Source: a virus. From it: a stretch of 55,761 bases of DNA. How positions within the stretch are numbered: the first letter of the stretch is position 1; each line of letters begins with the position of its first letter. Shown one piece after another: positions 911-55,504 of the stretch. Location of the stretch: the IMG/VR virus record IMGVR_UViG_3300045988_162287, one strand, 5' to 3'. A program made the translations under genes and the position numbers. Under the pieces are notes generated by a model. The model worked only from the letters and a program-made list of their open reading frames with translations. It was not told where the DNA came from and did not search any database.

Positions 911-1038
911 GTTTGTCATCGCGACAAAAACATCGCACAAAGAGGTAAGAGTGGGGAAGAGTTTGCCTTATTTTCTTAGCAATCTTTTCTAGGGCGATCG
1001 ATTCCCCGCTCTTATTTTTCTCTGTCGAAAGGAGAACC

Positions 1039-2013: not shown

Positions 2014-4797
2014 ATGGTCGTATTGATGGAAGACGAGTCGAACTCGCTGTCCCATATTGGCGTCAAGCGCCGTTCCGGAAGGTACCCGTATGGATCTGGT
2101 GAGGATCCTTACCAGCATGAAGACTTCTACAAACGATATTTGGATCTCAAGAACTCCGGTCTAACCGAAAAAGAGATCGCCGATTCCATGGGGATCACCA
2201 CGACGAAGCTTCGTGCTCGTAGGACCATTATCTATAACGAGCAGCTTGCCCAGCGTCAGCATCGCGCCTATGAGCTCAAGCAGAAGGGATATTCCAATAC
2301 CAAGATCGGTGAGATCATGGGTGTGAACGAATCTACTGTTCGGTCCCTTCTTAATCCTTCGAGTCGTGCTCGAGCCAATGCGTCGACCATCATCGCCAAT
2401 AATCTCAAGGAGACCATCGGCAAGGATGGAGCGGTACAGATTGGAAAAGGCGTTGAGCAGTATCTGGGATATTCCCAGGACAAGCTCAAGGTCGCTGTTG
2501 CCATGCTCGAAGAAGAAGGTTACACGGTTCATTATATTTACACCAAGATGGGAGGTCCGAACCATACCACGGTCAAGGTTCTTGCCGCTCCTGGTGTGAC
2601 CGTTCGAGATTTGGTAAACGATCGTAATAAGATTAAGATCGTCGGTATGTCCCTTGATGAGCCTCACGAAGGTGGCGTTGGAATCAAGAAGCCGGTATCC
2701 ATCGATTCTAAGCGTCTTGGTGTTGTGTACGCTGAGGACGGAGGAACCGAACGTGATGGCGTCATGCTTATTCGTCCGGGAGCAGCTGATCTCGAACTTG
2801 GCGGTTCGCATTACGCGCAGGTCCGCATCAACGTTGATAACAGCCATTACCTCAAAGGTATGGCCATGTACGGTGATCCGGATCAGTTCCCGGATGGTGT
2901 GGACATCATATTCAACACGAACAAGAAGCGTGGAACCCCGATCGAGGGAACCGGCGATAATTCGGTATTGAAGCCGCTCAAGCGACTGACCAATCCGGAT
3001 GGAACGAAAGGCGATGTCGATTGGAGCAATCCATTCGGCGCCACCATAGATCCGATCAAAGGTCAGTATGAGTACGACGATCCAAAGACCGGGAAGAAGA
3101 AGCAGTCATTGATCAATAAGGTCAATGATGAAGGCGACTGGGATGACTGGTCGAGAAGCCTTCCTTCCCAGATGCTTTCTAAGCAGGATATTTCTTTGGC
3201 CAAACGTCAACTTGGCATTGATCTTGATCGTCGTCAGCGAGACTACGATGAGATCATGGCGTTGGATAATCCAGTAGTCAAGGCCAATCTTCTCAAGTCA
3301 TTTTCTGATGAGTGCGATTCAGCGGCAATTCATATGAAGGCCGCGGCGATGCCTCGTCAGAGGACTCAGGTTATTTTGCCTATCCCTTCCTTGAAGGACA
3401 ATGAGATATATGCTCCGAACTTCAGACCTGGCGAGAAGGTGATTCTTATTCGCTTCCCGCATGGCGGAAAGTTCGAAATCCCTGAGCTCACGGTCAACAA
3501 TAACAACAAGGAAGCCCGGGCGGCTCTTAGCGGATCCAAGGATTGTGTTGGTATCAATGCCAAAGTGGCCGAACGACTCTCTGGTGCCGATTTTGATGGC
3601 GACAACGTTCTGGTTATTCCGAACAACCGAGGCGAGATCAAGACTCGATCCGCTCTTGACGGTCTGAAGAACTTCGATCCCAAGACCGCATATCCTAAGT
3701 ATGAAGGCATGCGAGTCATGACGAAGCGTGAAAAAGGAAGAGAGATGGGCATCGTCTCTAACCTTATTACGGACATGACCATCAAGGGTGCTCCTTGGGA
3801 GGATATCGAGAAGGCGGTCCGCCATTCGATGGTGGTCATCGATGCTGAGAAGCACGAGCTGAACTGGAAACAGTCCGAACGTGACAATCAGATCGATCTT
3901 CTCAAGCAGAAGTGGCAGAGTCGAGGAGATGGAAAATATGGTGGAGCATCCACTCTTATTTCCAGATCCAAGTCTACCGAACGCATTCCAGAACGTAAGC
4001 TTCGTTCGGCCAAGGAAGGCGGATGGATCGACCCTGAAACAGGTGAGAAAGTCTACGTCGAAACCGGTCGAGAGAAAGTTGTTCCCGCCAAGAAGGACAA
4101 GGACGGAAAGGTTATTTCTTGGAAGAAGGTTCCAGCCGAATCGGTAACGGTGAAGATGGACCTTGCCAAGGATGCCTACGAACTTTCGTCCGGAACGGCG
4201 ATGGAAGGTGTCTATGCTGACTATGCAAATTCTCTGAAGTCCCTGGCAAACCAAGCCCGAAAATCGTATTTGAATTCTGGTTCGTTCAAGTATGATCCCC
4301 AAGCTGCAAAAACATACTCGTCAGAGGTCAGTTCCTTGAAAGCCAAACTCAATACGGCTCTCAAGAACGCTCCTTTGGAACGCAAGGCCGAGCTTCTTTC
4401 GGACAGTTTGTACGAAGCCAAGAAGGCGGCTCATCCAGAATATGAAAAGGACGATCTGAAAAAGCTTTCCAACAGGTGCCTTAATGAGGCCCGTATTGTA
4501 GTGGGCGCCAAGAAGCAATTGGTCGACATCACTGATAAGGAATGGGAAGCCATTCAGCATAGGGCCGTCAGCAAGAATACCCTTCAGCAGATCCTGCAAA
4601 ACGCGGATCCTGACAGAGTCAAGCAATTGGCCACTCCGAAACAGGGTGTTGCTATGTCGGCGTCCCTTGTTGCGAGGGCCAAGTCCATGCTCAATCGTGG
4701 TTACACACAGGCTGAAGTAGCCGATAGGCTTGGCGTATCAATAGATACACTGAAGCGTAATGTGACTACTAAGACTAAGGTGGCAGACAATGGCTAA
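2014..4797 (+). CDS. Putative single-subunit two-barrel (beta/beta-prime-like, YonO/QDE-1-class) RNA polymerase with N- and C-terminal HTH segments
   Basis: HYLKGMAMYGDPDQFPDGVDIIFNTN resembles the RNAP beta barrel (RHGNKGV...EDMP..DG.PVDIVLNPLG). VILIRFPHGG...GINAKVAERLSGADFDGDNVLVIPN resembles beta-prime (VLLNRAPTLHRLG...NADFDGDQMAVH). HTH-like segments: EIADSMGITTTKLRARR, KIGEIMGVNESTVRSLL and QAEVADRLGVSIDTLKRN. Confidence 0.6.
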   Translation: MVVLMEDESNSLSHIGVKRRSGRYPYGSGEDPYQHEDFYKRYLDLKNSGLTEKEIADSMGITTTKLRARRTIIYNEQLAQRQHRAYELKQKGYSNTKIGEIMGVNESTVRSLLNPSSRARANASTIIANNLKETIGKDGAVQIGKGVEQYLGYSQDKLKVAVAMLEEEGYTVHYIYTKMGGPNHTTVKVLAAPGVTVRDLVNDRNKIKIVGMSLDEPHEGGVGIKKPVSIDSKRLGVVYAEDGGTERDGVMLIRPGAADLELGGSHYAQVRINVDNSHYLKGMAMYGDPDQFPDGVDIIFNTNKKRGTPIEGTGDNSVLKPLKRLTNPDGTKGDVDWSNPFGATIDPIKGQYEYDDPKTGKKKQSLINKVNDEGDWDDWSRSLPSQMLSKQDISLAKRQLGIDLDRRQRDYDEIMALDNPVVKANLLKSFSDECDSAAIHMKAAAMPRQRTQVILPIPSLKDNEIYAPNFRPGEKVILIRFPHGGKFEIPELTVNNNNKEARAALSGSKDCVGINAKVAERLSGADFDGDNVLVIPNNRGEIKTRSALDGLKNFDPKTAYPKYEGMRVMTKREKGREMGIVSNLITDMTIKGAPWEDIEKAVRHSMVVIDAEKHELNWKQSERDNQIDLLKQKWQSRGDGKYGGASTLISRSKSTERIPERKLRSAKEGGWIDPETGEKVYVETGREKVVPAKKDKDGKVISWKKVPAESVTVKMDLAKDAYELSSGTAMEGVYADYANSLKSLANQARKSYLNSGSFKYDPQAAKTYSSEVSSLKAKLNTALKNAPLERKAELLSDSLYEAKKAAHPEYEKDDLKKLSNRCLNEARIVVGAKKQLVDITDKEWEAIQHRAVSKNTLQQILQNADPDRVKQLATPKQGVAMSASLVARAKSMLNRGYTQAEVADRLGVSIDTLKRNVTTKTKVADNG

Positions 4798-5062
4798 TAC
4801 CAAAGACTATCTGCTTACCACGATTGACAATCCATACAATCCATGGACCAATTGGGATCAATGGTTTGACTATGATCAGCGTATGGGCTATTGCACATGC
4901 TCCTATCTAGCACGCATCATGTCAGTCACTGATACAATGACTGATGTTGAACTAGATCGTGAGTATGAGTTCGCAATGGACGAGATCATCAAGTACGATG
5001 TGATCGGCCGATACGCAAAGATTAAGAAGAGTGATCCTACACCAATGGGAAAACTTAACTGA
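4790..5062 (+). CDS. Hypothetical protein (Trp/Tyr-rich)
   Basis: ORF with AAGGTGG RBS; overlaps the end of the upstream gene; no recognisable motif. Confidence 0.5.
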   Translation: MANTKDYLLTTIDNPYNPWTNWDQWFDYDQRMGYCTCSYLARIMSVTDTMTDVELDREYEFAMDEIIKYDVIGRYAKIKKSDPTPMGKLN

Positions 5063-5143
5063 AAAGTACCGATTTCGTTGCGATCTCTCGCTCTTCATCG
5101 ATAAAATAATATGATTCGAGCCAAGGAGTCATATTATTTTGAT

Positions 5144-5203
5144 GGAGGGGGAGGGGTCGCGATGAACCGGTACCCTTCAGCATCGCCCGCCTCCTCATTT
5201 TTT
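5144..5203 (+). terminator. GC-rich imperfect hairpin followed by a T-run (terminator; could also mark a cos/pac region)
   Basis: ggagggggaggggtcgcgatg...catcgcccgcctcctc followed by attttttcc; located between the end of the 0.2-5.06 kb block and the packaging genes. Confidence 0.45.
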
Positions 5204-5428
5204 CCCCGACGGGATATTTTTCGAGAAGTCGATTACCCAGACCACGTGTTTTGGGGCTTCAAACGGGAGTGCCGCTTGGGTCCAAAGCAAAATTCCTCGC
5301 TCATGGCGGTTACGAAAACCGGAGGAAACTCCTTTCGATTTTAGGGACAACCATTCGGTACTCTCTTTTGGAGAACCAAAACCAATCAGAACTCTTCGAA
5401 ACAACTACAGAACTGGAGGCGATATTTC

Positions 5429-5776
5429 ATGGGGCGACGTAAGAAGCTCGATGGATCGTCTTCCCCTCAGTTCTCGCCCGCCTCTAACCCTGAGGAACGC
5501 GAGAATCAGATGATTTCGCTCGCCGTCAACCTTGCCGAGCAACAACTTCGCGAGGGGACGGCTTCATCTCAGGTCCTCGTGCACTATCTCAAGCTCGCTT
5601 CGACTCGAAACAAGCTTGAAGAGGAGAAGATCAAGTACGAGACGGCCATGCTTCAGGCCAAGAAGGATGCACTGAACAAATCTGGTCAGCTTCAAGAACT
5701 CATGGAGAACGCTCTGGAGGCGTTTCGTTCATATTCTGGAAATTCGGAAGGATGTGAAGTTCATGACGGACAATGA
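5429..5776 (+). CDS. Possible small terminase subunit
   Basis: 115-aa basic N-terminus plus coiled coil, first gene of the packaging block upstream of terL. The call rests on position and size only. Confidence 0.35.
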   Translation: MGRRKKLDGSSSPQFSPASNPEERENQMISLAVNLAEQQLREGTASSQVLVHYLKLASTRNKLEEEKIKYETAMLQAKKDALNKSGQLQELMENALEAFRSYSGNSEGCEVHDGQ

Positions 5777-6989
5777 ACTTTATCACTTCGGCGTCAAAGG
5801 CATGAAGTGGGGTGTTCGAAGGTATCAGAACGAAGATGGATCGCTTACCTCTCTCGGTAAGAAGCGCGATAAGATGCTTTCTGATCGGAAAGTCGCAAAA
5901 AGGAACTCGACCATTTCCAATATCGTTAAAGCGGAATATTCCCGTCGCGAATTTGAGGACGCCAAGACTCGACTGAAACTTGAAAACCAGACGAAAAAGT
6001 CAAAGCGTCGGCAGGATCTTGAGAAAAAGTATCTGAAGCAAGGGTTCGCCAAGGACGAGGCCGAGATCAAAGCTTATAATCGAGCTAAGACAGAAACAAT
6101 TCTTAAGGTTGCCGGAGGTATTGCTTTAGCATCCGCAGCGGCTTACGTTGCGTACAAGCATTACGATAAAGTCACCGATCGGGTATTCGAAAAGGGAAGT
6201 AAGATCGGTCGTTTGACGAGTGACGGATCGGAACAGACCAATAGGGCGTTTTATGGCTTCGTCAACAAGCACGACAAAGATCGGTATGAAGGTCTTTATG
6301 GAAAGACCCTTGGTAAGAACGGCACCGTATATCGAAAGGCCATGCGCGCTGCTGGCGATATTAATATTGCCTCCCCTGAATCCGCTCGAAAGGTTCTTAA
6401 GAACATGTTTGACACTGATAAGCAATCTTTCGATGCTTTTAAGAGGAACATAGATGTGATGGCCTTCGCGGTTCCTCCTACAACGAAGCAAGGACGACTT
6501 TGGCGTAAGGCCAAACAGGAACTTGATTCCGGAAAGATCGGTGATAACACCTATAAGGCGTTTAACACCGCACTTGTTCTTCACACACAAGAGCAACAGC
6601 CGATCAATGATAAATTCTATTCGGCTATGAAGAAGGCCGGATATGGTGCGATCCGCGATGTGAACGATAAAGAGAATTCCGGATATTTTGCCAGGAATCC
6701 GTTGATTGTATTCGATACCGATAAGATCGATGTCGAGGGATTCACGAAACTCGGAAGCGATCATATCAATTCCATGTTCGCTAAAGAGACGGGAAAGGTC
6801 GCTGCTCATGCATTGGCAAACGAGTATGGTCCTATTGGAGCCGTATTTGCGACTTCCATTGGAGCGATGAAACTCGTTAAGCGATCCAATGAGACAAAGT
6901 TCGTTGAAAACTATCGCAAGCAACATCCTGAGAGCACATTGTCCAATAATGAAATTCTGAAGATGAGAGATCGGATGATCAATGCTTAA
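5763..6989 (+). CDS. GVKGMKWG-module family protein 1 (408 aa)
   Basis: N-terminus MTDNELYHFGVKGMKWGVRRYQNEDGSLTSLGKKR, then a basic coiled region, a TM helix (ILKVAGGIALASAAAYVAY) and a globular C-terminal domain. GGAAGGA lies 9 nt before ATG 5763. Confidence 0.6.
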   Translation: MTDNELYHFGVKGMKWGVRRYQNEDGSLTSLGKKRDKMLSDRKVAKRNSTISNIVKAEYSRREFEDAKTRLKLENQTKKSKRRQDLEKKYLKQGFAKDEAEIKAYNRAKTETILKVAGGIALASAAAYVAYKHYDKVTDRVFEKGSKIGRLTSDGSEQTNRAFYGFVNKHDKDRYEGLYGKTLGKNGTVYRKAMRAAGDINIASPESARKVLKNMFDTDKQSFDAFKRNIDVMAFAVPPTTKQGRLWRKAKQELDSGKIGDNTYKAFNTALVLHTQEQQPINDKFYSAMKKAGYGAIRDVNDKENSGYFARNPLIVFDTDKIDVEGFTKLGSDHINSMFAKETGKVAAHALANEYGPIGAVFATSIGAMKLVKRSNETKFVENYRKQHPESTLSNNEILKMRDRMINA

Positions 6990-7518
6990 CGATACCGAAA
7001 TTAAAGATCTTTGTATTAACCGGCACATGATCACACCATTCGATGAGGCGAATCTTCAGCCGTGCAGTTACGACGTCACACTCTCTAAGAGCATCATACG
7101 ATATTTCGGTCGTGGTGAGATCAACGCCATGGATTACACGCTCCATGATCTGGAGTATATTCGTTTCGCCATGAACGATGACGGTTTCGTTCTCGATCCA
7201 AATGAATTCATTCTTGGTTCTACAAACGAGGGAGTGACGATCCCGAAGAACATCGCCGCGCGCTTCGAAGGTAAGTCGTCGCTTGGCCGTCTCGGTCTTG
7301 CGACCCATGTCACCGCCGGTTTCATCGATCCGGGGTTTACCGGTGACATCACACTTGAGATCAAAAACCTCAACAATCATCCGATCCGCATATTTCCAGG
7401 AATGAAGATCGGCCAACTGTGCTTCTTCGACCTTCATGATGATGTTGATCGAGCTTATGGATCGACTGAACTCGGATCTCATTATCAGCATCAATCAGGA
7501 CCGACGACAAGTCGGTGA
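6982..7518 (+). CDS. dcd: dCTP deaminase (dUTPase superfamily)
   Basis: GKSSLGRLGLATHVTAGFIDPGFTGDITLEIKNLNNHPIRIFPGMKIGQLCFF matches the Dcd signature GRSSLARLGL..HVTA..IDPG....LE..N...P..L.PGM.IG.L.F. Confidence 0.85.
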   Translation: MLNDTEIKDLCINRHMITPFDEANLQPCSYDVTLSKSIIRYFGRGEINAMDYTLHDLEYIRFAMNDDGFVLDPNEFILGSTNEGVTIPKNIAARFEGKSSLGRLGLATHVTAGFIDPGFTGDITLEIKNLNNHPIRIFPGMKIGQLCFFDLHDDVDRAYGSTELGSHYQHQSGPTTSR

Positions 7519-7556
7519 TATTTGGATTGCCCCTAGTGGGCGGAAAGGATATTCTT

Positions 7557-7997
7557 ATGAATTCTGAACTTTATCACTACGGCGTCAAAGGTATGAAGTG
7601 GGGCGTTCGGCGCTATCATAACGCCGATGGCACACTCACCTCCAAAGGTAAGGCCCGTCAGGCGAAACGAACCAAGAAGGCCCAGAAGAAGTGGGACAAG
7701 AACACGAGAAAGCATTGGGTCGAAGGGTATAATAAGGCCGCTGATTATTCCAATAACAACTTCATCAACAAGCTTAATGAGAAGTACAAGGATTACGATT
7801 TCTCGGATCGAACCAATAAGAAGACCCAGAAGGTCTATAAGCGCTATATCGAGGAGTACGTAAATGGCTTCAACAGTATTCTCGAAAAGAGCTATCGTGA
7901 GGTTCTTGGCGATCGTCCGGACGATCCGGGAGCTATTCGATCTCTTCCGTTCTATAATGATGCCAATTCGTTGTATCAAGCATGGCTGAATAATTAG
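7557..7997 (+). CDS. GVKGMKWG-module family protein 2 (146 aa)
   Basis: MNSELYHYGVKGMKWGVRRYHNADGTLTSKGKAR followed by a Lys/Arg-rich region; GGAAAGGA RBS. Confidence 0.6.
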   Translation: MNSELYHYGVKGMKWGVRRYHNADGTLTSKGKARQAKRTKKAQKKWDKNTRKHWVEGYNKAADYSNNNFINKLNEKYKDYDFSDRTNKKTQKVYKRYIEEYVNGFNSILEKSYREVLGDRPDDPGAIRSLPFYNDANSLYQAWLNN

Positions 7998-9763: not shown

Positions 9764-10507
9764 ATGGTGGATTTTTCCGATAAGCAACGGGCCATGCTGG
9801 CCAAACGAGGTCTTGCGATGCCCGACGGCGGCTATCCCATCAGGAATCGCAAGGATCTTCGCAACGCCATTCAGGCCTATGGTCGCGGCAATAGCAAGGA
9901 CAATGTTCAACGGTGGATCAAGAGGCGTGCCAAGCAACTTGACGCCGAGGACATGCTTCCAGAGAATTGGAGAACTTCGATGAACCATAGTGAAGAACTT
10001 TATCACTTCGGCGTCAAAGGCATGAAGTGGGGCGTTCGACGAGCCGAGCGTAAGACTCGCAAACAGGCCCGTAAAGACGCCCAGGAGACCGCTCAATCCA
10101 AGATGTATTACGGTGAAGGAGCCGGCGTTCGTCGACGCAACATCAATTCCGTGGTCAGGCAGCGTTCAAAAGATCCAACCTACAAGAAGGCTTTTGACGA
10201 AGAGTACTCAAAACAGGACATGGGCAAGGCTCGCCGTGACGCTGAACGACAGCGCAAACGTACCGATCGCACCGAACCGGTAAAGACCGGAATCGGTCGT
10301 GGTGTGAAGAAGGCTGTTCGTGCAGGAACCAAGGCTGTAACGTTCGCTGCGACGACCGCCGCAGGTGTGGCCGCTTCATACTATATTTCCCATCCGGATG
10401 AAGCCAAGCGAATGGTTAACACCATTGCCAAGAAGGCATCCAGTACGGTAAATAGGGCTCGGAACGTAGCCCGTGGCGCCCAGTTCCTTCGTAAGATGGG
10501 TCTGTGA
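9764..10507 (+). CDS. GVKGMKWG-module family protein 3 (247 aa) with an N-terminal AMPDGGYPIRNRKDLRNAIQAYGR domain
   Basis: Internal EELYHFGVKGMKWGVRRAERK (aa 77-96), a basic region and a C-terminal hydrophobic stretch (AVTFAATTAAGVAASYYI). Confidence 0.6.
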   Translation: MVDFSDKQRAMLAKRGLAMPDGGYPIRNRKDLRNAIQAYGRGNSKDNVQRWIKRRAKQLDAEDMLPENWRTSMNHSEELYHFGVKGMKWGVRRAERKTRKQARKDAQETAQSKMYYGEGAGVRRRNINSVVRQRSKDPTYKKAFDEEYSKQDMGKARRDAERQRKRTDRTEPVKTGIGRGVKKAVRAGTKAVTFAATTAAGVAASYYISHPDEAKRMVNTIAKKASSTVNRARNVARGAQFLRKMGL

Positions 10508-10950: not shown

Positions 10951-11298
10951 ATGGATGAAAGCATTCTCAAATCGGTCAAGAAGGTACTCGGACTTGATCC
11001 CGAATCATCCGATTTCGATGAGGATCTTGTCATATTTATCAATTCGGCGTTCTTCAATCTCAGACAATTGGGAGTTGGTCCCTCGGAGGGATATTCGATC
11101 ACCGGAATCGAAGACACGTGGAGTGAATTCACTGATGACGATCAACTTCTTACTGGCGTAAAGCCATATATTCAGCAAAAGGTTCGTCTTCAGTTCGATC
11201 CGCCGACCAATTCGTTCCTTGGGCAATCGATCCGGAAGAACATCGAGGAGTATGAATGGCGTCTCAACATCCAAGGGGAAGGAGGTTTCAATGAATGA
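10951..11298 (+). CDS. Head-tail connector (gp6-like) protein
   Basis: ILKSVKKVLGLDPESSDFDEDLVIFINSAFFNLRQLG fits the gp6-like connector pattern; about 115 aa; GGAGGA RBS. Confidence 0.5.
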   Translation: MDESILKSVKKVLGLDPESSDFDEDLVIFINSAFFNLRQLGVGPSEGYSITGIEDTWSEFTDDDQLLTGVKPYIQQKVRLQFDPPTNSFLGQSIRKNIEEYEWRLNIQGEGGFNE

Positions 11299-11710
11299 GC
11301 TCTATCACTTCGGCGTCAAAGGCATGAAATGGGGCGTACGTAAGGATCGTAAGCGATCGGTAAGTTCCAAGCGTTCGCGATCGGACAGCAAGGATTACAC
11401 GGAAAGCCGAGACCTTCTCAAGAAGTCTCCGAACAAGTTGTCCAACACCGAGCTCCGTAAGATCAATGAACGACTCAATCTCGAACAACAGTATTCGAAT
11501 CTGACGACAAGTCAGAAGCAGAAAGGCAACCGGTTCATCGACAAGGTTGGTAACCAGATGAAGCAGACCGCGGCCAACGAGGTGTCGAAGCAGTTGATGA
11601 ATGTCGGCAAGATCGTTCTTGGAGCCGGAATCGCCTATGCGGCCAGCAGGGCCCGTGGGAACGGACAGTCATATTCATTCGACTTCGCTCGCAGGCAGAT
11701 CGGTCGGTGA
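11291..11710 (+). CDS. GVKGMKWG-module family protein 4 (139 aa)
   Basis: MNELYHFGVKGMKWGVRKDRKRSVSSKRSRS..., C-terminal hydrophobic stretch (IVLGAGIAYAA); AAGGAGG RBS. Confidence 0.6.
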   Translation: MNELYHFGVKGMKWGVRKDRKRSVSSKRSRSDSKDYTESRDLLKKSPNKLSNTELRKINERLNLEQQYSNLTTSQKQKGNRFIDKVGNQMKQTAANEVSKQLMNVGKIVLGAGIAYAASRARGNGQSYSFDFARRQIGR

Positions 11711-18317: not shown

Positions 18318-18698
18318 ATGAGGGTGAAATTCGAAGTGTCTGGCGGTTTCACGAAGACCGAGCGGTTTCTCAACCGCATGAAGCGTCGTGAATACCTGAA
18401 CGTGCTCGATGAGTTCGGCCGTGACGGCGTTCAGGCACTTCGAAACGCCACCCCTGTCGATTCCGGTGCCACGGCCGAGGCGTGGGATTACGAGATCAAA
18501 CGCACCCGTAATTACACCGAGATTGTTTGGACCAATTCCAACATCAACGACGGCGTTCCGATTGCCGTCATCCTCCAGTACGGTCACGGCACCGGTACCG
18601 GAGGCTATGTCCAGGGTCGTGATTACATCAACCCGGCGATCCGACCCATATTCGATAAGATAGCCGAGAAGGCTTGGAAGGTGGTGACTTCTGCATGA
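18318..18698 (+). CDS. HK97 gp10-like head-tail/tail component
   Basis: 126 aa; ATPVDSGATAEAW resembles the P.DTG.L motif of the gp10 family. Confidence 0.5.
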   Translation: MRVKFEVSGGFTKTERFLNRMKRREYLNVLDEFGRDGVQALRNATPVDSGATAEAWDYEIKRTRNYTEIVWTNSNINDGVPIAVILQYGHGTGTGGYVQGRDYINPAIRPIFDKIAEKAWKVVTSA

Positions 18699-21600
18699 GC
18701 AGCATCGACGAACGCGTCGTAAAGATGCGTCTTGATAATAGCCAATTCGAGCAGGGTGTCAACAAGACCTCCGGTCTTCTCGGTAAGCTCAAGCAGGCAT
18801 TAAACCTCGACAAGTCGGTCGAATCGATCAGCAATGTCGATAAGGCCGTAAACGGCGTCAGCTTCAATCCGCTGACCTCCGGTCTTCAGGGAGTCCAGTC
18901 CGGCTTTAACGCCATGGGCGCCGTGGCGTTCTCCGTGCTCAACCGCATGACCAATGCGGCCATTGATGCCGGGAAGAGTATCACCAACGCCTTGACCGCT
19001 TCGGTCCGTGACGGTTTCGCCGAATACGAGACCCAGATGAACGCCGTGCAGACGATTCTGGCGAACACCCAGTCAAAAGGATCGACGATCGACGACGTCA
19101 ATTCGGCACTCGACACGCTGAACACCTACGCCGACAAGACCATCTATAACTTCACGGAGATGACGAGGAACATCGGCACCTTTACGGCTGCCGGTGTTGA
19201 TCTTCAGACATCGGTGGATTCGATCAAGGGTATCGCCAACCTTGCGGCTGTTTCCGGTTCGAGTTCCGCCCAGGCCTCGCAGGCCATGTATCAGTTGTCG
19301 CAGGCAATCGCCGCCGGAAAGGTCCAGCTTATGGACTGGAACTCGGTGGTCAACGCCGGTATGGGCGGCGAGGTCTTCCAGAATGCCCTGAAGCGCACTG
19401 CCGAGAACTTCGGCACCAACGTCGACGGTATGATCCAGAAGTACGGATCGTTCCGAGAATCGCTGACCGAGGGCGGATGGCTCACTACCGATGTCCTTAC
19501 GGAGACGTTGAAGCAACTTTCCGGAGCGTATACCGAAGCAGATCTTGTTTCTCAGGGCTATACCGAGGAACAGGCCAAGCAGATCGTCCAGTTGGCCAAT
19601 ACGGCCGAAGGCGCCGCAACCGACGTCAAGACGTTCTCTCAGTTGATCGATACGACAAAAGAAGCATTGGGATCTGGTTGGACCAATACTTTCGAAATCA
19701 TATTTGGCGACTTCGAAGAAGCCAAGGAGCTATGGTCTGGTGTCGCCAATGTTATTTCTGATGTCGTTAATCGATCGTCAGAATCGAGAAACAACCTTCT
19801 TCAGGGATGGAAGGATCTCGGCGGAAGAACCGAACTGATTGAAGGCCTGTCCAACGTCTTTGAATCCCTCGGTAAGGTGTTATCGACCGTCGGTAATGCA
19901 TTTCGGAAGGTGTTTCCTCCGACAACGTCTCAGCAACTTATGGATATTACCAAGGCGTTCGCTTCGTTTACGGAAAGCCTCGTTCCTTCCGAATCGACGC
20001 TAAACAAGATCGGCCGAGTTGCTGAGGGCGTCTTCTCCGTCTTTGATATCGGCGTGCAGGCCGTCAAAGCTGTTGGCGAGGCCATCTCCACGGCATTCGG
20101 ATCTGACAGCATGGGCAGTTTGCTCAACAATCTGCTCGATATCGCCGCCGGATTCGGAGATTGGCTTGTCGGACTTGATAATTCGATCAAGCAGTTCGGC
20201 ATATTCGAAGGAGCGGCCAAGAAAGTAGAAACGGCCGTCAGTAGTGTTCTTGGTCTGTTCAGTTCCTTCACCGGTAGAATCTCGTCGATGGGATCCACCA
20301 TCGGATCGATCGCTTCGACAATTGGATCCACCATCGGATCGATCGCTTCGACAATTGGTAATACTCTTGGCGGAGCGTTCGAACGGGTCAAGAACGTCAT
20401 CAGTGATGTCTTGACGTGGATCACCGACAACATCTCCGGTGGTGATATTTTCGCCGGCCTCGCCGGTGGTGGCATCTTCCTCGCTGCACAGAAGATCGGC
20501 GGTGCATTCGATAAGATCAAGGAGGCCGTTGAAGGCCTCTTCGGTAACGGGGCTGAAAAGCTCAAGAAGGGTGCTGGCGTATTCGATGAGATCCTAGACG
20601 GTCTTCAAGAATCGTTGAACGCATTCACGGGAAGCGTCAAGGCGTTTACTCTTGTAGAGATCGCCGGATCCATCGCGCTGCTTGTTAACTCGATGGAGAA
20701 GATCGCTGCCCTCAGTGGTGGTGAAGTCGTTGGCGGCGTTTCGGCCATCGGCGGCATGATGACCGAGCTTAACCTCAGTCTTAAATCGATCACGAAGACG
20801 GTGAAGGGCGTTAAGACCACCGATCTCATCAAGACCGGTGCGGCCCTCATAGAATTCGCGAAGGCTGTGGACATGTTGGCCAACGCCATGTCCACGATCG
20901 GTAATCTCAAGTGGGACGAGATCGCCAAGGGCCTCACCGGCATGGGCGGCGCCATGGCGGAGCTCGTCGCTGCCGCCAAGGGTCTGAGCTACGCCAAGGT
21001 CGATCTCAAGACGGCAGGCTCGCTTATCGCCATGGCCCAAGCGGTCAAAATGGTGGCAGATCCGCTCAAGAAGCTCGGTAACATGAGCTGGGATCAGGTC
21101 GGCAAGGGCCTATCTGCCATGGGCGGCGCCCTGACGGAGATGGGTACAGTCACTGGTCTGCTCGGCCGATTCGGCAAGCACAACATTTCTGCTGCCGTCA
21201 GCATGGTCGTTACGGCCAAATCCCTTGGTGATATCGCCAAGGCGTTCAATTCGTTCTCTCAGTATAGCTGGGACGAAATCGGACGCGGCCTATCTGCCAT
21301 GGGCGGTGCTTTGGGCGAAGTCGGGCTCGTTACCGGCGCCTTGGGCAAGATTGCAGGATTCTCTGGAATTCTAGCTAGCGGTTCCATTTTCATTACAGTG
21401 CAGTCCCTTGATGATATCGCCAAAGTATTCGGATCGTTCACTCAATACGACTGGGGTGAAATCGGACGCGGTCTGGCGGCCATGGGCGGTGCCCTTGGCG
21501 AGGTTGGACTCGTCACTGGAGCCCTCGGAAAGCTCGCGGGCTTCTCAGGCATCATCGGTGGCGGATCGATCCTTATCACAGCGCAGAGTCTCGGCGACAT

Positions 21601-24277
21601 CGCATCGGCGTTCGGATCGTTCACTCAATACGACTGGGGCGAAATCGGACGTGGTCTGACGGCCATGGGTGGTGCTCTCGGCGAGGTTGGCGTCATATCC
21701 GGCGCTTTGGGTAAACTCGCTGGTTTGTCCGGAATCATCGGATCTGGCTCCATAGTTCTTACTGCTCAGGGTCTTGGTGATATCGCCCAAGCGTTCAATT
21801 CGTTCTCTCAGTATAGCTGGGATGAGATCGGACGCGGCCTTACCGCCATGGGCGGCGCTCTCGGCGAGGTCGCGGTCGTTAGCGGTGCATTGGGTAAACT
21901 CGCTGGTTTGTCCGGATTGATCGGAGCCGGCACAATCAACCTCACCGTGCAAGGTCTTGACGAGATTGCCCAAGCGTTCAATTCGTTCTCTCAGTATAGC
22001 TGGGATGAGATCGGACGCGGCCTTGTTGCCATGGGCGGTGCCATGGGCGAGGTCGCCGCCATATCCGGAGCGACAGGTGCCCTGACCGGAATCGCTGGTC
22101 TGATGGGTGCCGGTACGATTACACTCGCTTCGCAAGGCCTGATCGATCTGGCGACCGCATTCGGTAAGTTCGCCGAATTCAATTGGGATGAGATCGGTAG
22201 GGGTCTGACGGCCATGGGCGCCGCGATGGGCGAGACCGCGCTTGGCGGCCTGCTCAACACCTTCTCCGGATTCGGTGCCAGTGCCATCGAGAAGATGGCC
22301 GCTCCGCTCGGAACGCTCGCTGATTCCATTAAGAAGTGGGAAGGCGTGGCCGTTCCGGACGATCTGGCCGATCAGCTCGGAAGGATCGCCGATGGCGTAG
22401 GCAAGTTCACGATGGCTGGATGGGGCAGCGATACCGTTGCCAACATCGCCCAGCCGATGAACGTCCTCGCTGATGCGGTGGCCAAGTGGTCGACGATCAC
22501 GTTCCCGACCGATATCGCAACGCAGCTTGGCTCGTTGGCCAGTGGAGTCGAGGCGTTCACACTGGCCTTTGCTGGTGGATGGTCGCTCAATGCCGTGGTC
22601 GGTCCGCTTGGAACGCTCGCCGATTCCGTTAAGAAGTGGGACGGCGTTGAGGTTCCCGGTGGCATTCAAGGCAATCTCACCGCTCTTGCGAACGGCGTGA
22701 AGGCGTTCACGCTTGCATTCGCCGGCGGCTGGTCGATTGACGCCGTCATTGGCCCCTTGGGACAACTGCCAGGGGCCGTTAAGAAGTGGAACGGCGTGGA
22801 GGTTCCTGGCGGCATTCAAGGCAATCTTACCGCTCTCGCCAATGGTGTGAAAGCGTTCACGCTGGCCTTCGTTGGTGGATGGTCGATAAATGCAGTCATT
22901 GGCCCTTTGGGACAACTGGCAGGGGAAGTCAAGAAATGGAACGGCGTTGAGGTTCCTGGAGGAATTCAAGGCAATCTTACCGCTCTCGCTAATGGCGTGA
23001 AGGCGTTTACTGGTATTGGATCCGGGATCGCGGAATCCATGTCAAATGCCGCTTCCGGGGTTCGATCCATTGCTACGGCGGCAACTAGTTTGTCGGCGGC
23101 GAACCTGTCTGGTGTATCGAAGCAGATTTCGAATTTCATCACTTCGCTGAACAACACACCGGCAGTGACGAGCACCCTTCCGGATCAGCTCAAATCCTTC
23201 GCGACCAACCTGTCGACATCGATGCAGAACATCGCCACCGCGATTTCGACCAACGGATCAACCATATCCGCTGGATTCACGCAGTTCAAGGCATCGGTTA
23301 CCAATGGATTGTCCGGGGTTGGATCCATCGTCAGCCAGAACATGTCGAGTATGTCCACCGCCATCATCGGCGCCACCTCGACCATCAACGGCGGATTGCA
23401 TTCAATCGTCAGTGTCGTACTGGCCTTCGCCGGAAGTATGAGGAACGCCCTTAACGAGTCGACAACATCGACGGCGGCCGGACTTCGGGCCACGGTGAAC
23501 AGGATCGATTCTTTCCAGTCACAGTTCCGCACGGCCGGTCAACATCTAGCTGATGGTCTGCTGAACGGCATGCGATCGAATTCATCACAGTTCGCCGGAG
23601 TGTTCTCATCGTCCGTCAATCAGGCCGTTAACAGCGTCAGAGGATATTATAACGGATTCTATAACACCGGACGATATCTCGTCGAGGGATTCACCAACGG
23701 CATAAATGATTACGCGAGATCAGCGGCCGCCGCAGCGGCCAATATGGCCAGTTCGGCCAAGACGGCTGCCGATCGCACCTTGGATGTCGGTTCCCCGTCG
23801 AAGGTCATGATGCAGGTCGGTCGATTCTTCACCGAAGGATTCTCGATCGGCATTACTGATCGAGAGGACATGGTCAGCGATTCTTCCGAGAAGGTCGCGC
23901 AGAAGGCGATATCCACGTTGAATGACATGCTGGCGACATCATCGATCGACGATCTGTTCGACGCGAGTCCGACGATCACCCCGGTGCTTGACCTAAGTGC
24001 CATCAGCAAGCAGGCTGGATCGATCGATTCGATGTTGTCGAGATCCATCGCTCCGTCAGAGACCGAGCTCAGGGAAATCGATCGTCGATTCCGTCAAAAT
24101 GAGAGTGGTTCTCGGACAACGGAGAAGGATACGAGCGGTCCGAAGTCGGTCAACATCGAATACAACCAGACGTTGAATTCGCCGACCAGTCTCAGTCGTT
24201 ATGATATTTACCGACAGACATCGAACCAACTCAAACTCCTTCGTCAGGAATTGAAAATGTCACCTATAGGAAAGTAG
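18695..24277 (+). CDS. Tape measure protein (about 1,860 aa) with several internal tandem repeat families
   Basis: Very long, Ala/Gly-rich, helical and repeat-rich ORF upstream of the distal tail protein; ATG 18695 overlaps the upstream stop. Confidence 0.9.
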   Translation: MSSIDERVVKMRLDNSQFEQGVNKTSGLLGKLKQALNLDKSVESISNVDKAVNGVSFNPLTSGLQGVQSGFNAMGAVAFSVLNRMTNAAIDAGKSITNALTASVRDGFAEYETQMNAVQTILANTQSKGSTIDDVNSALDTLNTYADKTIYNFTEMTRNIGTFTAAGVDLQTSVDSIKGIANLAAVSGSSSAQASQAMYQLSQAIAAGKVQLMDWNSVVNAGMGGEVFQNALKRTAENFGTNVDGMIQKYGSFRESLTEGGWLTTDVLTETLKQLSGAYTEADLVSQGYTEEQAKQIVQLANTAEGAATDVKTFSQLIDTTKEALGSGWTNTFEIIFGDFEEAKELWSGVANVISDVVNRSSESRNNLLQGWKDLGGRTELIEGLSNVFESLGKVLSTVGNAFRKVFPPTTSQQLMDITKAFASFTESLVPSESTLNKIGRVAEGVFSVFDIGVQAVKAVGEAISTAFGSDSMGSLLNNLLDIAAGFGDWLVGLDNSIKQFGIFEGAAKKVETAVSSVLGLFSSFTGRISSMGSTIGSIASTIGSTIGSIASTIGNTLGGAFERVKNVISDVLTWITDNISGGDIFAGLAGGGIFLAAQKIGGAFDKIKEAVEGLFGNGAEKLKKGAGVFDEILDGLQESLNAFTGSVKAFTLVEIAGSIALLVNSMEKIAALSGGEVVGGVSAIGGMMTELNLSLKSITKTVKGVKTTDLIKTGAALIEFAKAVDMLANAMSTIGNLKWDEIAKGLTGMGGAMAELVAAAKGLSYAKVDLKTAGSLIAMAQAVKMVADPLKKLGNMSWDQVGKGLSAMGGALTEMGTVTGLLGRFGKHNISAAVSMVVTAKSLGDIAKAFNSFSQYSWDEIGRGLSAMGGALGEVGLVTGALGKIAGFSGILASGSIFITVQSLDDIAKVFGSFTQYDWGEIGRGLAAMGGALGEVGLVTGALGKLAGFSGIIGGGSILITAQSLGDIASAFGSFTQYDWGEIGRGLTAMGGALGEVGVISGALGKLAGLSGIIGSGSIVLTAQGLGDIAQAFNSFSQYSWDEIGRGLTAMGGALGEVAVVSGALGKLAGLSGLIGAGTINLTVQGLDEIAQAFNSFSQYSWDEIGRGLVAMGGAMGEVAAISGATGALTGIAGLMGAGTITLASQGLIDLATAFGKFAEFNWDEIGRGLTAMGAAMGETALGGLLNTFSGFGASAIEKMAAPLGTLADSIKKWEGVAVPDDLADQLGRIADGVGKFTMAGWGSDTVANIAQPMNVLADAVAKWSTITFPTDIATQLGSLASGVEAFTLAFAGGWSLNAVVGPLGTLADSVKKWDGVEVPGGIQGNLTALANGVKAFTLAFAGGWSIDAVIGPLGQLPGAVKKWNGVEVPGGIQGNLTALANGVKAFTLAFVGGWSINAVIGPLGQLAGEVKKWNGVEVPGGIQGNLTALANGVKAFTGIGSGIAESMSNAASGVRSIATAATSLSAANLSGVSKQISNFITSLNNTPAVTSTLPDQLKSFATNLSTSMQNIATAISTNGSTISAGFTQFKASVTNGLSGVGSIVSQNMSSMSTAIIGATSTINGGLHSIVSVVLAFAGSMRNALNESTTSTAAGLRATVNRIDSFQSQFRTAGQHLADGLLNGMRSNSSQFAGVFSSSVNQAVNSVRGYYNGFYNTGRYLVEGFTNGINDYARSAAAAAANMASSAKTAADRTLDVGSPSKVMMQVGRFFTEGFSIGITDREDMVSDSSEKVAQKAISTLNDMLATSSIDDLFDASPTITPVLDLSAISKQAGSIDSMLSRSIAPSETELREIDRRFRQNESGSRTTEKDTSGPKSVNIEYNQTLNSPTSLSRYDIYRQTSNQLKLLRQELKMSPIGK
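20291..20356 (+). repeat. Perfect 33-bp tandem duplication inside the tape measure gene
   Basis: ggatccaccatcggatcgatcgcttcgacaatt x2, encoding GSTIGSIASTI twice. Confidence 0.9.
20860..22260 (+). repeat. About eight tandem 180-bp (60-aa) repeats in the tape measure gene (approximate bounds)
   Basis: Recurring (Y/F)SWDEIGRGL.AMGGALGEVG...GALGKLAG.SGI...Q.L.DIA.AF.SF.Q units at about 180-nt spacing (for example 21241, 21421, 21601, 21781, 21961). Confidence 0.8.
22307..23020 (+). repeat. About five tandem 150-bp (50-aa) repeats in the tape measure gene (approximate bounds)
   Basis: LG.L...VKKW.GVEVPGGIQGNLTALANGVKAFTLAFAGGWSI.AVIGP units repeated head to tail. Confidence 0.8.
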
Positions 24278-28960: not shown

Positions 28961-28970
28961 GGAGATATTC

Positions 28971-29779: not shown

Positions 29780-29812
29780 ATGATTATGCGTCTTGCTTCC
29801 ACCGGTGGTGCC
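29780..29812. repeat. Right arm of the perfect 33-bp inverted repeat
   Basis: atgattatgcgtcttgcttccaccggtggtgcc is the reverse complement of 29166-29198. Confidence 0.95.
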
Positions 29813-29921
29813 ATTATTCCTCCGGATGCTTCCGCAACGGGTTTTCTTATCCTTTTCCCGTCCCGAGGTCCGGAGGAGGGTTCTTTTATAAACATAAAGG
29901 ATGTATCGAAAGGAGTCCATC

Positions 29922-33166: not shown

Positions 33167-33197
33167 TTCGCGATAAAAACATGTCATATAATGAAGA
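33167..33197 (+). promoter_or_regulatory. Conserved promoter-like motif, copy 1 (TTCGCG-N14-TATAAT-GAAG)
   Basis: ttcgcgataaaaacatgtcatataatgaaga. Confidence 0.6.
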
Positions 33198-33490: not shown

Positions 33491-33520
33491 TTCGCGTTGG
33501 AAACATGGACTATAGTGAAG
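33491..33520 (+). promoter_or_regulatory. Conserved promoter-like motif, copy 2
   Basis: ttcgcgttggaaacatggactatagtgaag. Confidence 0.6.
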
Positions 33521-34252: not shown

Positions 34253-34282
34253 TTCGCGCCCAAAACATGTCTTATAGTGAAG
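34253..34282 (+). promoter_or_regulatory. Conserved promoter-like motif, copy 3
   Basis: ttcgcgcccaaaacatgtcttatagtgaag. Confidence 0.6.
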
Positions 34283-34664: not shown

Positions 34665-34694
34665 CTCGCGTCCGAAACATGGACTATAGTGAAG
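34665..34694 (+). promoter_or_regulatory. Conserved promoter-like motif, copy 4
   Basis: ctcgcgtccgaaacatggactatagtgaag. Confidence 0.6.
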
Positions 34695-35177: not shown

Positions 35178-36007
35178 CTCCATGCGTGTATAGGATCGAT
35201 TATGTCTTCGAACGATATTTTCCGCAATATTGGAGCGAACGGCTATGTTTCCGAATTGATGGATGGAACCATATGGTGGTCGGGACCAAATCCGGACTGC
35301 TGTGCTATTTCACCGTCAACCATTATTACGGCGGAACGGATGCGGACTTCGATTTCTTCGTACGCACCGGACCGAAAAGAAAGAAAGCGATCATGAGCGA
35401 TTGTGTCCATATTTTCCTCATCGGTCCTCAGGGATCGGGAAAGACCACACTTGCCAAGGAATTGGAGTGTCGTGGGTATGAACAGATCCTTGCATATACG
35501 ACCAGGCCTCCACGGGACAACGAGATCGAAGGCGTCGACTATCATTTCGTCACCGACGCCGAATTCGAGGACGCGTTTCTTGATGGGGAACTGACCTGTG
35601 TGCGGACATATTCCACCGTCTTTGGCGTGTGGAGATACGCATTCGCATGGTCGGATCTTTATCGCGCGGTGGATAGTGTCGCCGTCATCGATCCGGAATC
35701 ATATTTACGCATCCATGACCAGATCGAGAACGTCTTCGGTATATATCTTGACGTGCCCAATGATGTCCGGAAAGCGCGACTGCTCGTGCGCGGAGACGAT
35801 CCCATGGAGATCGATCGGCGCATGCAGGCCGATGTAATGGACTTCGCATCAATCGACATGTGTTTCCTAGATGTCTGCAAGATGCGGATCGGTATGGTCC
35901 GACGACCGGACATCGAAGCCGATCGGATCGAAGGCCATGTCCGGGAGTTCCGCAGTCGGATATTTCGCGGTGAAAACATGGCGTATGATGAAGAGTCAAA
36001 CCTCTAG
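35174..36007 (+). CDS. Guanylate kinase-like nucleoside monophosphate kinase with a 73-aa N-terminal extension
   Basis: FLIGPQGSGKTTLAKEL...AYTTRPPRDNEIEGVDYHFVTDAEFE matches Gmk (P-loop plus TTR.PR..E..G.DY.FV). The kinase domain alone would start at ATG 35393. Confidence 0.65.
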   Translation: MTPCVYRIDYVFERYFPQYWSERLCFRIDGWNHMVVGTKSGLLCYFTVNHYYGGTDADFDFFVRTGPKRKKAIMSDCVHIFLIGPQGSGKTTLAKELECRGYEQILAYTTRPPRDNEIEGVDYHFVTDAEFEDAFLDGELTCVRTYSTVFGVWRYAFAWSDLYRAVDSVAVIDPESYLRIHDQIENVFGIYLDVPNDVRKARLLVRGDDPMEIDRRMQADVMDFASIDMCFLDVCKMRIGMVRRPDIEADRIEGHVREFRSRIFRGENMAYDEESNL

Positions 36008-37037: not shown

Positions 37038-37066
37038 TTCGTGATGAAAACATACCATATAATGAA
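37037..37066 (+). promoter_or_regulatory. Conserved promoter-like motif, copy 5
   Basis: ttcgtgatgaaaacataccatataatgaag. Confidence 0.55.
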
Positions 37067-37092
37067 GAGATTCATCAACGAAAGGAACTGCA

Positions 37093-37821: not shown

Positions 37822-37850
37822 TCGCGATATTCTCATGAACTATAGTGAGG
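37821..37850 (+). promoter_or_regulatory. Conserved promoter-like motif, copy 6 (overlaps the next hairpin)
   Basis: atcgcgatattctcatgaactatagtgagg. Confidence 0.5.
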
Positions 37851-41467: not shown

Positions 41468-41478
41468 AGGAGGCGAAG

Positions 41479-45294: not shown

Positions 45295-45300
45295 TGACCG

Positions 45301-47140: not shown

Positions 47141-47363
47141 TTTGACGAATTGTTTGATATGTCTATCAATGGTGGCCGTCGCCTTTATCGGACTCCTGGT
47201 AGACTGGTTGATCACGCCGACCGACGAATACGTCAATGACGCACCGTATCGACATTTGCTGTGGATCATCGAAAACCGGATTCATCGAGGCAAGCATGCC
47301 CGTAGATGGACGCATCCGACCATTTGGTGGGCGGATTATCCGCGACATAAACATATGCTATAA
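47133..47363 (+). CDS. Membrane-anchored small protein
   Basis: ATGATTGA overlap with the upstream stop; TM helix LICLSMVAVAFIGLLVDWLI. Confidence 0.45.
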   Translation: MIDLTNCLICLSMVAVAFIGLLVDWLITPTDEYVNDAPYRHLLWIIENRIHRGKHARRWTHPTIWWADYPRHKHML

Positions 47364-47368
47364 TGAAG
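47339..47368 (+). promoter_or_regulatory. Conserved promoter-like motif, copy 7
   Basis: tccgcgacataaacatatgctataatgaag. Confidence 0.55.
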
Positions 47369-48269: not shown

Positions 48270-48299
48270 TTCGCGATAAGGTCATCGCTTATAATGAAG
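48270..48299 (+). promoter_or_regulatory. Conserved promoter-like motif, copy 8
   Basis: ttcgcgataaggtcatcgcttataatgaag. Confidence 0.55.
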
Positions 48300-55494: not shown

Positions 55495-55504
55495 TAACGA
55501 GGCA

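Follow-up and report, generated by a model that had tools for sequence, protein, structure and literature searches.

Two-barrel RNA polymerases (RNAPs) are the enzymes of cellular transcription. Minimal versions with both barrels on a single chain are the main view onto transcription without cellular subunits and sigma factors, and the closest described systems are of this kind. YonO of SPbeta is reported as an experimentally shown single-chain DNA-dependent RNAP (Forrest et al., 2017, PMC5467207). QDE-1 and plant RDR2 are eukaryotic RNA-silencing polymerases, the non-virion RNAPs of phages P23-45 and P74-26 (gp64, gp62) are compact single-chain phage enzymes, and gp66 from phi14:2, a crAss-like phage, is a virion-packaged RNAP with a single-chain two-barrel core. 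Here we compare these enzymes with the 927-amino-acid (aa) product of a gene at 2014..4797 of a viral DNA, IMG/VR record IMGVR_UViG_3300045988_162287; "the window" means this whole stretch of 55,761 nucleotides (nt). The predicted structures identify the protein, with high confidence, as a single-chain two-barrel RNAP with built-in helix-turn-helix (HTH) modules.

The family itself has been described before. Koert et al. (bioRxiv 10.1101/842583) presented it as a putative RNAP with HTH domains at both ends, a DxDGD loop and motifs of the YonO/crAss type, gave an HHpred match of the family to PF05183 with a probability of 95.7%, and likewise described the nuclease-polymerase gene order. Papers of 2024-2026 keep the label "RNA-dependent RNA polymerase", one of them as an oddity typical of RNA viruses. 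The phages with this enzyme, phrog_4291 in PHROGs (1706 with orf75, ReqiPepy6, ReqiPoco6 with gp106, Streptomyces BI, Arthrobacter AU and Gordonia phages, BitterVaud1), have the same HTHs, DFDGD and KG motifs and neighbours as the window, and the same position at the right genome end; nothing essential differs.

By tblastn, 250 deposited phage genomes encode the protein, with identities of 38-54% and at least 80% of the query covered in 249 of the 250. The hosts are Arthrobacter (95 phages), Gordonia (55), Streptomyces (54) and Lactococcus (13), and further Curtobacterium, Microbacterium, Rhodococcus, Faecalibacterium and Bifidobacterium. Among deposited phages the closest has 54% identity, and unannotated metagenome assemblies have copies that are 97% identical. 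When phmmer was run with the 416-aa core against 1.84 billion representatives, 1,168 clusters at 50% identity were matched (929 at E<=1e-10), and of the 150 representatives listed, nearly all have the core at about aa 225-650, within a protein of about 880-1,050 aa. The names on the records vary: "helix-turn-helix DNA-binding domain protein", "RNA-dependent RNA polymerase", "hypothetical protein" and "structural protein". A sequence-only reading of this DNA had called the enzyme unusual in a siphovirus. Because the family is known across 250 deposited phages this view has to be given up; the gene is the signature gene of a large, already described phage supercluster, and the window protein is a further member of a recognised, annotated family and no new kind. 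The family is among the most compact two-barrel RNAPs, with a core of about 415 aa, and it is the only one, when set beside YonO, QDE-1, crAss gp66 and the P23-45 enzymes, with sigma region 4-like HTHs in the same chain.

YonO is likewise one chain of less than 1,000 aa with the same barrel order, and its VKGLLV, IIFTKSQ, ILRSPH and FDNDGD parallel LKGMAM, IIFNTNK, LIRFPH and ADFDGD of the window in the same order. In SPbeta, yonO is immediately followed on the same strand by the genes for terminase, portal and structural proteins, and the window gene likewise stands before the late block when the genome is read as a circle. YonO is nevertheless a sister family. It forms a separate PHROG, phrog_8308, which YonO itself matches with E=0 and the window protein only weakly over 82 aa (aa 456-537, E=1.6e-4), exactly the DFDGD barrel, without full-length similarity. 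HTH modules, present in the window protein, are absent from YonO, whose chain ends in a Cys-rich segment, and YonO has DNDGD where the window family has the cellular-type DFDGD. QDE-1 and RDR2 are the best structural match to the core, but at 12-14% identity, with other flanking domains, no HTHs and another biological setting. The P23-45 and P74-26 enzymes are likewise compact and single-chain, but they show no detectable sequence similarity, have no HTH modules and belong to another phage lineage. The gp66 protein is far longer (2,180 aa; chain 6vr4_A, 2,166 residues), its gene lies among structural genes, and its fold match is marginal.

Fold and domain layout of the polymerase

The open reading frame (ORF) at 2014-4797 with its 927-aa product is present and starts from ATG, and the same gene call is found in an independent public assembly carrying an identical protein. 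At least 8,000 clusters (90% identity) match the protein at E<1e-10. The many homologous clusters show clearly that the gene is real, and the catalytic-core residues are invariant in 40/40 aligned homologues. All peptides on which the sequence-only reading had been built were found at their coordinates: HYLKGMAMYGDPDQFPDGVDIIFNTN at aa 278-303 (nt 2845-2922), VILIRFPHGGKFEIPELTV at aa 476-494, GINAKVAERLSGADFDGDNVLVIPN at aa 513-537, DFDGD at nt 3589-3603, and the HTH peptides at aa 54-70, 97-113 and 899-916.

Two AlphaFold2 models were built, one of the full-length protein from 40 homologues and one of the core alone (aa 225-640, 416 aa). The full-length model has a predicted local distance difference test score (pLDDT) of 77.8, and 17/17 of its significant matches in the Protein Data Bank (PDB; E<=0.001) are two-barrel RNAPs: QDE-1 is the best (E=5e-8), and maize RDR2 and P23-45-type non-virion RNAPs follow. 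Rpb1 of RNA polymerase II comes later, among the weaker matches. The core model (pLDDT 89, predicted template modelling score, pTM, 0.81) gives a sharper picture. Its best 50 PDB matches are all two-barrel RNAPs or complexes with one. It matches QDE-1 with E=2e-9 and a query template modelling score (TMq) of 0.52-0.54 over about 510-540 alignment columns including gaps, RDR2 with TMq 0.46-0.52, and the P23-45-type enzymes P32 gp64 and P74 gp62 with TMq 0.49 and a root-mean-square deviation (rmsd) of 7.2-7.5 Å; the fold alignments to these three kinds of enzyme span 442-537 columns, gaps included. The bacterial beta-prime barrel is matched with probability 0.99 and an rmsd of 3.1-3.2 Å over 143-146 columns, and the non-virion RNAP of AR9 and crAss gp66 (E=0.014) are also among the matches. 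A PolD-like DNA polymerase was considered and discarded, since no PolD-type fold is among the core matches. The profile of phrog_4291 ("RNA-dependent RNA polymerase") aligns almost from end to end (E=0, 1188.6 bits, aa 4-918 against profile positions 4-906 of 909). The layout of the gene and its product is as follows.

2014..4797, + strand: gene of the HTH-flanked two-barrel RNA polymerase homologue, 927 aa (from the ORF list; alternative GTG start at 1963)
2035..2100, + strand: extreme N-terminal peptide ESNSLSHIGVKRRSGRYPYGSG, aa 8-29; disordered in the model, with invariant residues
2125..2352, + strand: two N-terminal HTH units, aa 38-75 and aa 76-113, the second sigma-70 region 4-like
2431..2628, + strand: small alpha/beta domain, aa 140-205, from the secondary structure of the model only
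2716..3129, + strand: beta-like double-psi beta-barrel (DPBB-B), aa ~235-372, with YLKGMAMYGD...VDIIFNTNK at nt 2845-2922
3136..3333, + strand: helical connector between the barrels, aa 375-440, from the predicted models
3361..3621, + strand: beta-prime-like barrel (DPBB-A), aa 450-536; includes LIRFPHGG and, as metal-binding loop, GADFDGD
3724..3855, + strand: two long conserved helices, aa 571-614 (model helices H571-590 and H595-614)
4660..4764, + strand: C-terminal HTH, aa 883-917, kept in five host genera

Conservation among the 40 homologues follows this layout. In the beta-like barrel R271, K281, G282 and K304 are invariant, and we take K281 and K304 to be the equivalents of K1065 and K1073 of beta. 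In the beta-prime-like barrel R480, P482, H483 and A525-D530 are invariant in 40/40 (GADFDGD is aa 524-530), and the catalytic residues including GADFDGD are also invariant in five phages of five host genera. Past this barrel N583-M588, A601, V602, H604-D610, K613 and H614 do not vary; in the model the two helices of aa 571-614 occupy the place of a bridge helix and of the beginning of a trigger loop, and by position may have such a role. By analogy with the published description of two-barrel RNAPs the connector at aa 375-440 would be a clamp connector. The N-terminal peptide has invariant H14, G16, S21, G22, R23, G27 and G29, with Y24 in at least 90%, and lies in a part of the full-length model (aa 1-32) with pLDDT<50.

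The HTH segments which the sequence-only reading had seen at both ends are three real HTHs, two of them above the Pfam cut-offs for sigma-70 region 4. The unit at aa 76-113 matches Sigma70_r4_2 with E=2.3e-11 and 43.6 bits against a cut-off of 25.7, and also HTH_23; the one at aa 885-917 matches Sigma70_r4 with 32.9 bits against 24.1, and also HTH_3 and HTH_24. The NCBIfam sigma70-ECF superfamily model scores 33.2 on the protein, under its cut-off of 42.9. The N-terminal HTH helices are seen in the predicted structure, and their recognition helix ES[ST]V is kept in 4/5 host genera.

The proposal of a single-chain two-barrel RNAP with beta-then-beta-prime order and a DFDGD loop is thus borne out by the fold, profile and Pfam HTH tests, and the predicted core resembles two-barrel RNAPs only. 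Because fold matches, profile link and motif conservation agree, the first identification is supported as far as computation reaches. Catalytic activity, the DNA template, promoter specificity and timing are what we infer beyond this: the protein is quite likely an active single-chain DNA-dependent two-barrel RNAP of the phrog_4291 family and the phage's own transcriptase, and its function would almost certainly be DNA-dependent transcription of phage genes.

Locus, cohesive end and promoter-like motif

The window is a circular assembly in which the first 99 nt recur as the last 99 nt; the phage genome is thus complete, at about 55,662 bp, and nearly all of its genes are on the + strand. The polymerase gene is placed in a nuclease/replication block outside the structural module, and the neighbourhood of helicase, nuclease, RecB exonuclease, polymerase and small ORF is the one seen in relatives:

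53796-55052: helicase gene, belonging to the polymerase-gene block
1039-1359, + strand: endonuclease gene, phrog_93, upstream in the same conserved block
1356-1988, + strand: RecB-type exonuclease gene, phrog_3953, upstream in the same conserved block
4790..5062, + strand: phrog_4303 gene, 90 aa, always directly 3' of the polymerase gene in relatives
5147..5222: cohesive-end (cos) region, with the right-end block GGGGGAGGGGTCGCG...GCAT followed by the predicted 9-nt 3' overhang CGCCCGCCT at 5184-5192

The order endonuclease, exonuclease, polymerase is also found in ReqiPoco6, 1706, Bing and Arcadia, and gp107, orf76, gp87 and gp97, respectively, are their positional homologues of the phrog_4303 ORF.

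The sequence-only reading had placed a terminator and a long intergenic region between the polymerase gene and the late block. A long intergenic region does exist (5063-5428), but it is not simply a terminator with a spacer; it is the cos region. Window positions 5147-5192 align with the right ends of two relatives, ReqiPoco6 (whose record annotates CGCCGCCCT as the 3' cos overhang) and Arcadia. The predicted left end, from 5193 (CCTCATTTTTTCCCCG...), aligns with the records of 1706 and ReqiPoco6 at their position 1; the cos block is also kept in two closer relatives. The hairpin and U-run of the supposed terminator (5136-5226) fold no better than shuffled sequences (z = -0.31), and we rejected the terminator on account of this folding and of the conserved cos block, which accounts for the sequence. 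A small hairpin with a T-run is seen just inside the left end, and its pairing is kept in relatives through differing sequences (CCCCGACGGG, CCCCGCAGGGG, CCTCGGGAGG).

Since the intergenic region is cos, the polymerase gene comes last but one before the right end of virion DNA, and because cos lies between, transcription from the polymerase operon into the 27.7-kb late block (5429 to ~33136) needs joined cos ends. The earlier statement that no sigma-70-like promoter precedes the late block carries no information, as consensus matches occur at chance level everywhere; one 9/12 match lies at 5078-5107. Scans of the early and late halves for this consensus were likewise set aside as evidence either way, the counts being those of chance. 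Apart from short conserved blocks, no conserved candidate late promoter was seen between cos and the first late gene.

A different element is found in the early region. The motif TCGC-N7-ACA-N5-TATA(A/G)T-GAAG is present nine times in the window, as eight strong copies and a weaker one, all on the + strand:

33168..33196, + strand: motif copy 1 (TCGC-N7-ACA-N5-TATAAT-GAAG)
33492..33520, + strand: motif copy 2
34254..34282, + strand: motif copy 3
34666..34694, + strand: motif copy 4
35965..35993, + strand: motif copy 5
37039..37067, + strand: motif copy 6
37822..37850, + strand: motif copy 7, weaker, with a position weight matrix (PWM) score of 15.6
47340..47368, + strand: motif copy 8
48271..48299, + strand: motif copy 9
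917..949, + strand: degenerate upstream half-motif TCGCGACAAAAACATCGC lacking TATAAT, shortly before the endonuclease gene

Each copy has a ribosome-binding site about 15-35 nt downstream, and a hairpin with a T-run precedes several of them. With TATAAT taken as the -10 element, TCGC falls at about -31 to -28 and ACA at about -20 to -18, some 10.5 bp or about one helical turn apart; the motif has no TTGACA-like -35 element. The half-copy at 917 scores at chance level (PWM 5.7 against a shuffle maximum of 8), and its position corresponds to that of the intact copies of ReqiPoco6 (L002:4054) and Arcadia (L015:44103), where a copy stands directly upstream of the nuclease-polymerase operon. Across the supercluster the form is YCRC-N7-ACA-N5-TATAAT (also YCRC-N7-ACA-N5-TATART-GA), with fixed geometry in five host genera of two phyla, and shuffled sequence yields at most 0.8 copies. 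The numbers found in relatives are:

BitterVaud1 (Bifidobacterium): 5-8 copies
1706 (Lactococcus): 6-11 copies
Bing (Streptomyces): 10 copies
Arcadia (Arthrobacter): 6 copies with the strict, 8 with the relaxed pattern
ReqiPoco6 (Rhodococcus), 8-kb right end: 2 copies
metagenomic relative L007: 2 copies

Between Bing and 1706, whose hosts belong to different phyla, 14/19 positions before the hexamer are identical. No copy precedes any late block among the phages compared. Positions that play no part in sigma-A recognition are conserved across host phyla, and so are the HTH recognition helices (ES[ST]VR); for this reason the polymerase is a reasonable candidate reader of the motif; we lean slightly towards the enzyme itself reading it. 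The 1706 and window versions (ACTATAGTAGAAAG, ACTATAGTGAAG) recall the T7/SP6-type promoter core (CACTATAG), probably by coincidence.

Virion hints, mechanism and rival explanations

Several observations bear on whether the enzyme travels with the virion. Orf75 of 1706 was deposited as "structural protein" while most ORFs of that phage are "unknown", and RefSeq renamed it RNA-dependent RNA polymerase (RdRP). Two representatives of about 1,800 aa (2/150 listed) carry the polymerase without either HTH set, covering about positions 113-866 of the phrog_4291 profile. One of them, P0251 (1,789 aa), consists of a Phage_portal domain (E=3e-29), a linker and the polymerase, and its gene stands between a 533-aa ORF in the large-terminase position and a 203-aa ORF, S78 prohead protease and major capsid protein; P0166 (1,809 aa) occupies the same slot. 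The P0251 linker recurs in portal-fused proteins with precomputed Pfam ADP-ribosyltransferase, SAP or peptidoglycan-binding domains, which the order of the Pfam hits would make C-terminal. Since the linker is shared with varying domains, the polymerase seems to stand where a head-internal protein carries variable cargo. A parallel is gp96 of P23-45, a virion RNAP that is a tape-measure fusion and as such a precedent for a polymerase fused to a virion protein. High-GC phage contigs (L009 1866-7235; L010 229-5658; P0269-P0281) encode giant portal-fused or portal-adjacent proteins with the shared linker, whose domains (two-barrel RNAP, ADP-ribosyltransferase PF03496, SAP, peptidoglycan-binding) look like polymorphic head-delivered cargo.

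The N-terminal peptide of the polymerase offers a further hint. Its first half resembles the 25-aa DUF7211 motif, with DxLxH[YF]G[VI]K in common. This motif (ELYHFGVKGMKWGVRR) stands near the N-terminus of four head-module ORFs of the window among terminase, connector and portal genes (Pfam E 1e-10 to 6e-12):

5754-6989: DUF7211-motif ORF
7515-7997: DUF7211-motif ORF
9764-10507: DUF7211-motif ORF, with the motif at aa 77
11219-11710: DUF7211-motif ORF

There are five such ORFs in L007, and orf7 of 1706, also deposited as structural, has the motif as well. When 736 fragments were searched with an ad hoc hidden Markov model (HMM) of DUF7211, the polymerase N-termini ranked right below the true members (E 3.5e-4 to 1.3; the window protein has E=0.75, for a half-motif only), and Pfam's own DUF7211 model does not match the polymerase N-terminus. 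The motif may act in these ORFs as a common peptide for docking or for targeting to the head. A dCTP deaminase/dUTPase-like gene (6982-7518) lies amid the DUF7211 ORFs upstream of the large terminase, an odd place which is kept in L007.

In the mechanism that we propose, the beta-like barrel (K281, K304) and the beta-prime-like barrel (RxPH, GADFDGD) would form one active site, where the three aspartates of DFDGD would hold the catalytic Mg2+. The two N-terminal HTHs and the C-terminal one would act in place of a sigma factor and recognise the supercluster-wide promoter YCRC-N7-ACA-N5-TATAAT. This motif stands before the small early and middle genes and also, in two relatives, Arcadia and ReqiPoco6, before the nuclease-polymerase operon. 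Transcription of the right-end operon would reach the 27.7-kb late block only once the cos ends are joined, and the first enzyme molecules may come with the virion. The whole chain, from promoter recognition by the HTHs over read-through across joined cos to possible arrival with the virion, is tentative, and we rate it somewhat short of an even chance. A more far-reaching version, in which the enzyme is packaged by way of the DUF7211-like peptide or a portal fusion, is injected and reads the motif, so that early transcription runs without host RNAP and independently of the host phylum, we consider unlikely; if true, such self-sufficient transcription would explain closely related phages in both Actinobacteria and Firmicutes.

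A number of results weigh against seeing the protein as the phage's own transcriptase with its own promoter. The profile searches gave the full-length phrog_4291 and the weak phrog_8308 match, but HMMER finds no match to the Pfam RdRP model PF05183 at E<=1. The 40-sequence profile run against PDB sequences returned HTH proteins only and no polymerase, and hhalign of the alignment, shallow at an effective number of sequences (Neff) of 2.45, against the single YonO sequence gave no meaningful match. Single-sequence phmmer gave nothing useful, and Pfam and NCBIfam show no polymerase family on the core. Global template modelling scores are modest, 0.29 for the full-length model and about 0.5 for the core. 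In the window the motif has no copy before the late block or on the minus strand. It contains a perfect sigma-A -10 hexamer, and for that reason host RNAP could read it, perhaps with a phage factor. The HTH-less relatives keep the catalytic core, so the HTHs are dispensable for some members. A literature search found no biochemical, transcriptomic or virion-proteomic study of the phrog_4291 family.

The late-transcription role implied by the sequence-only reading is not supported as such; it is one of two live models. According to it the labour is split as for YonO: host sigma-A RNAP reads the early motifs and makes a non-virion polymerase, which transcribes only the late block over joined cos. 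This fits the place of the gene in the replication/nuclease rather than the structural module, directly before the late block on the circular map like yonO before the SPbeta structural genes, and it also fits the consensus -10 hexamer, the motif before the polymerase operon in two relatives and the late genes without an upstream copy. Against it stand the lack of a conserved late promoter candidate after cos and a motif that has no -35 even in the Lactococcus phage 1706 and yet keeps TCGC/TCAC and ACA fixed across two phyla, which recognition by sigma-A alone would not predict; the virion-association hints also weigh against it. We hold this split to be possible, on the lower side. The other live model is a head-packaged early transcriptase like crAss gp66, N4 vRNAP or P23-45 gp96 that starts at the motifs without host RNAP. 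Because of the motif, the portal-fused relatives and the name given to the 1706 protein it is a serious rival to the YonO-like late role. The depositors' "structural protein", P0251 and P0166 in the head module with the polymerase in a variable cargo position behind portal and linker in P0251, the invariant disordered N-terminal peptide resembling the DUF7211 motif, and non-canonical early promoters conserved across phyla all favour it. The polymerase gene is however outside the structural module, beside the right genome end, in nearly all deposited relatives as in the window, the DUF7211 resemblance is weak, and the fused forms are a small minority that lack the HTHs. On balance virion delivery appears rather unlikely.

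Two further explanations have much less to recommend them. A literal RNA-dependent RNA polymerase, copying RNA for example to make double-stranded RNA or to amplify transcripts, would agree with QDE-1 and plant RDR2 as the best fold matches and with the name used in PHROGs and GenBank. That name derives from similarity to PF05183 and not from an assay, QDE-1 itself is reported to copy DNA too, YonO as the characterised phage relative is by the published account a DNA-dependent RNAP, and an enzyme with three HTH modules of the type that binds double-stranded DNA, in a phage with a double-stranded DNA genome, points the other way; we consider it extremely improbable. It is hardly more probable that the polymerase makes replication primers or origin-activating transcripts instead of mRNA. 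The gene does lie within a replication/recombination block (helicase, nuclease, exonuclease), and iteron-like repeats with an A/T-rich tract are found upstream of the polymerase operon in the window, L007, BitterVaud1 and 1706. The phage however already encodes a primase-polymerase (phrog_4210, primase profiles), and a DNA polymerase of PolD type is absent from the fold matches. For DNA-dependent transcription by the phage enzyme, the conserved motif and the portal-fused relatives supply templates and hypotheses for worthwhile biochemistry.

Other features of the genome

The repeats upstream of the polymerase operon consist of eleven CCTGCATACTTTT copies in both orientations at 55504-55761 and 1-175, flanking an A/T-rich tract (~60-120). 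Found at this one place in the genome only, the repeats are located after the helicase region and ahead of the first small ORF (182-535). The same layout with other repeats is seen in L007 (GAT[GT]AGATTTACACACA, L007:7560-7860) and in BitterVaud1 (AAAATTCTCAGTCGAGAATTTT, L011:41673-42033), and CTATCACGAAAAAACTTCGGG repeats stand directly upstream of the polymerase gene of 1706 (L004:7634-8037). Such a cluster might serve as an origin of replication or as an operator array. As the main reading we rejected CTGCATAC repeats as a promoter array of the polymerase, since they occur at a single locus in both orientations and vary in sequence between relatives while the HTH recognition helices are conserved. 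Right after the cluster follow two adjacent paralogous small ORFs (182-535 and 539-910) without a family match and with the repeated pattern IYVYEL...S...V...L......V..AL, which we take to resemble NUMOD1-type DNA-binding modules; these ORFs might bind the repeats.

The primase-polymerase gene (phrog_4210, 41413-46401) is split into ORFs 41413-44355 and 45301-46401, interrupted by an HNH homing-endonuclease ORF (44340-44840) and a 116-aa ORF (44944-45294). At the end of the tail-protein genes a 44-nt inverted repeat (29166-29209 and 29769-29812, 93% complementary) surrounds 559 nt, with one arm inside the tail protein ORF 28944-29483 and the other inside the minus-strand ORF 29480-29929, which has no family match and lies in a genome with the rest of its genes apparently on the + strand; the segment could be an invertible or duplicated host-range segment. 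The ORF in the tape-measure position (18674-24277, 1,867 aa), whose DNA resembles an annotated tape measure gene, contains at 20898-23010 eight in-frame units of 177-183 nt (59-61 aa) and three units of 150 nt.

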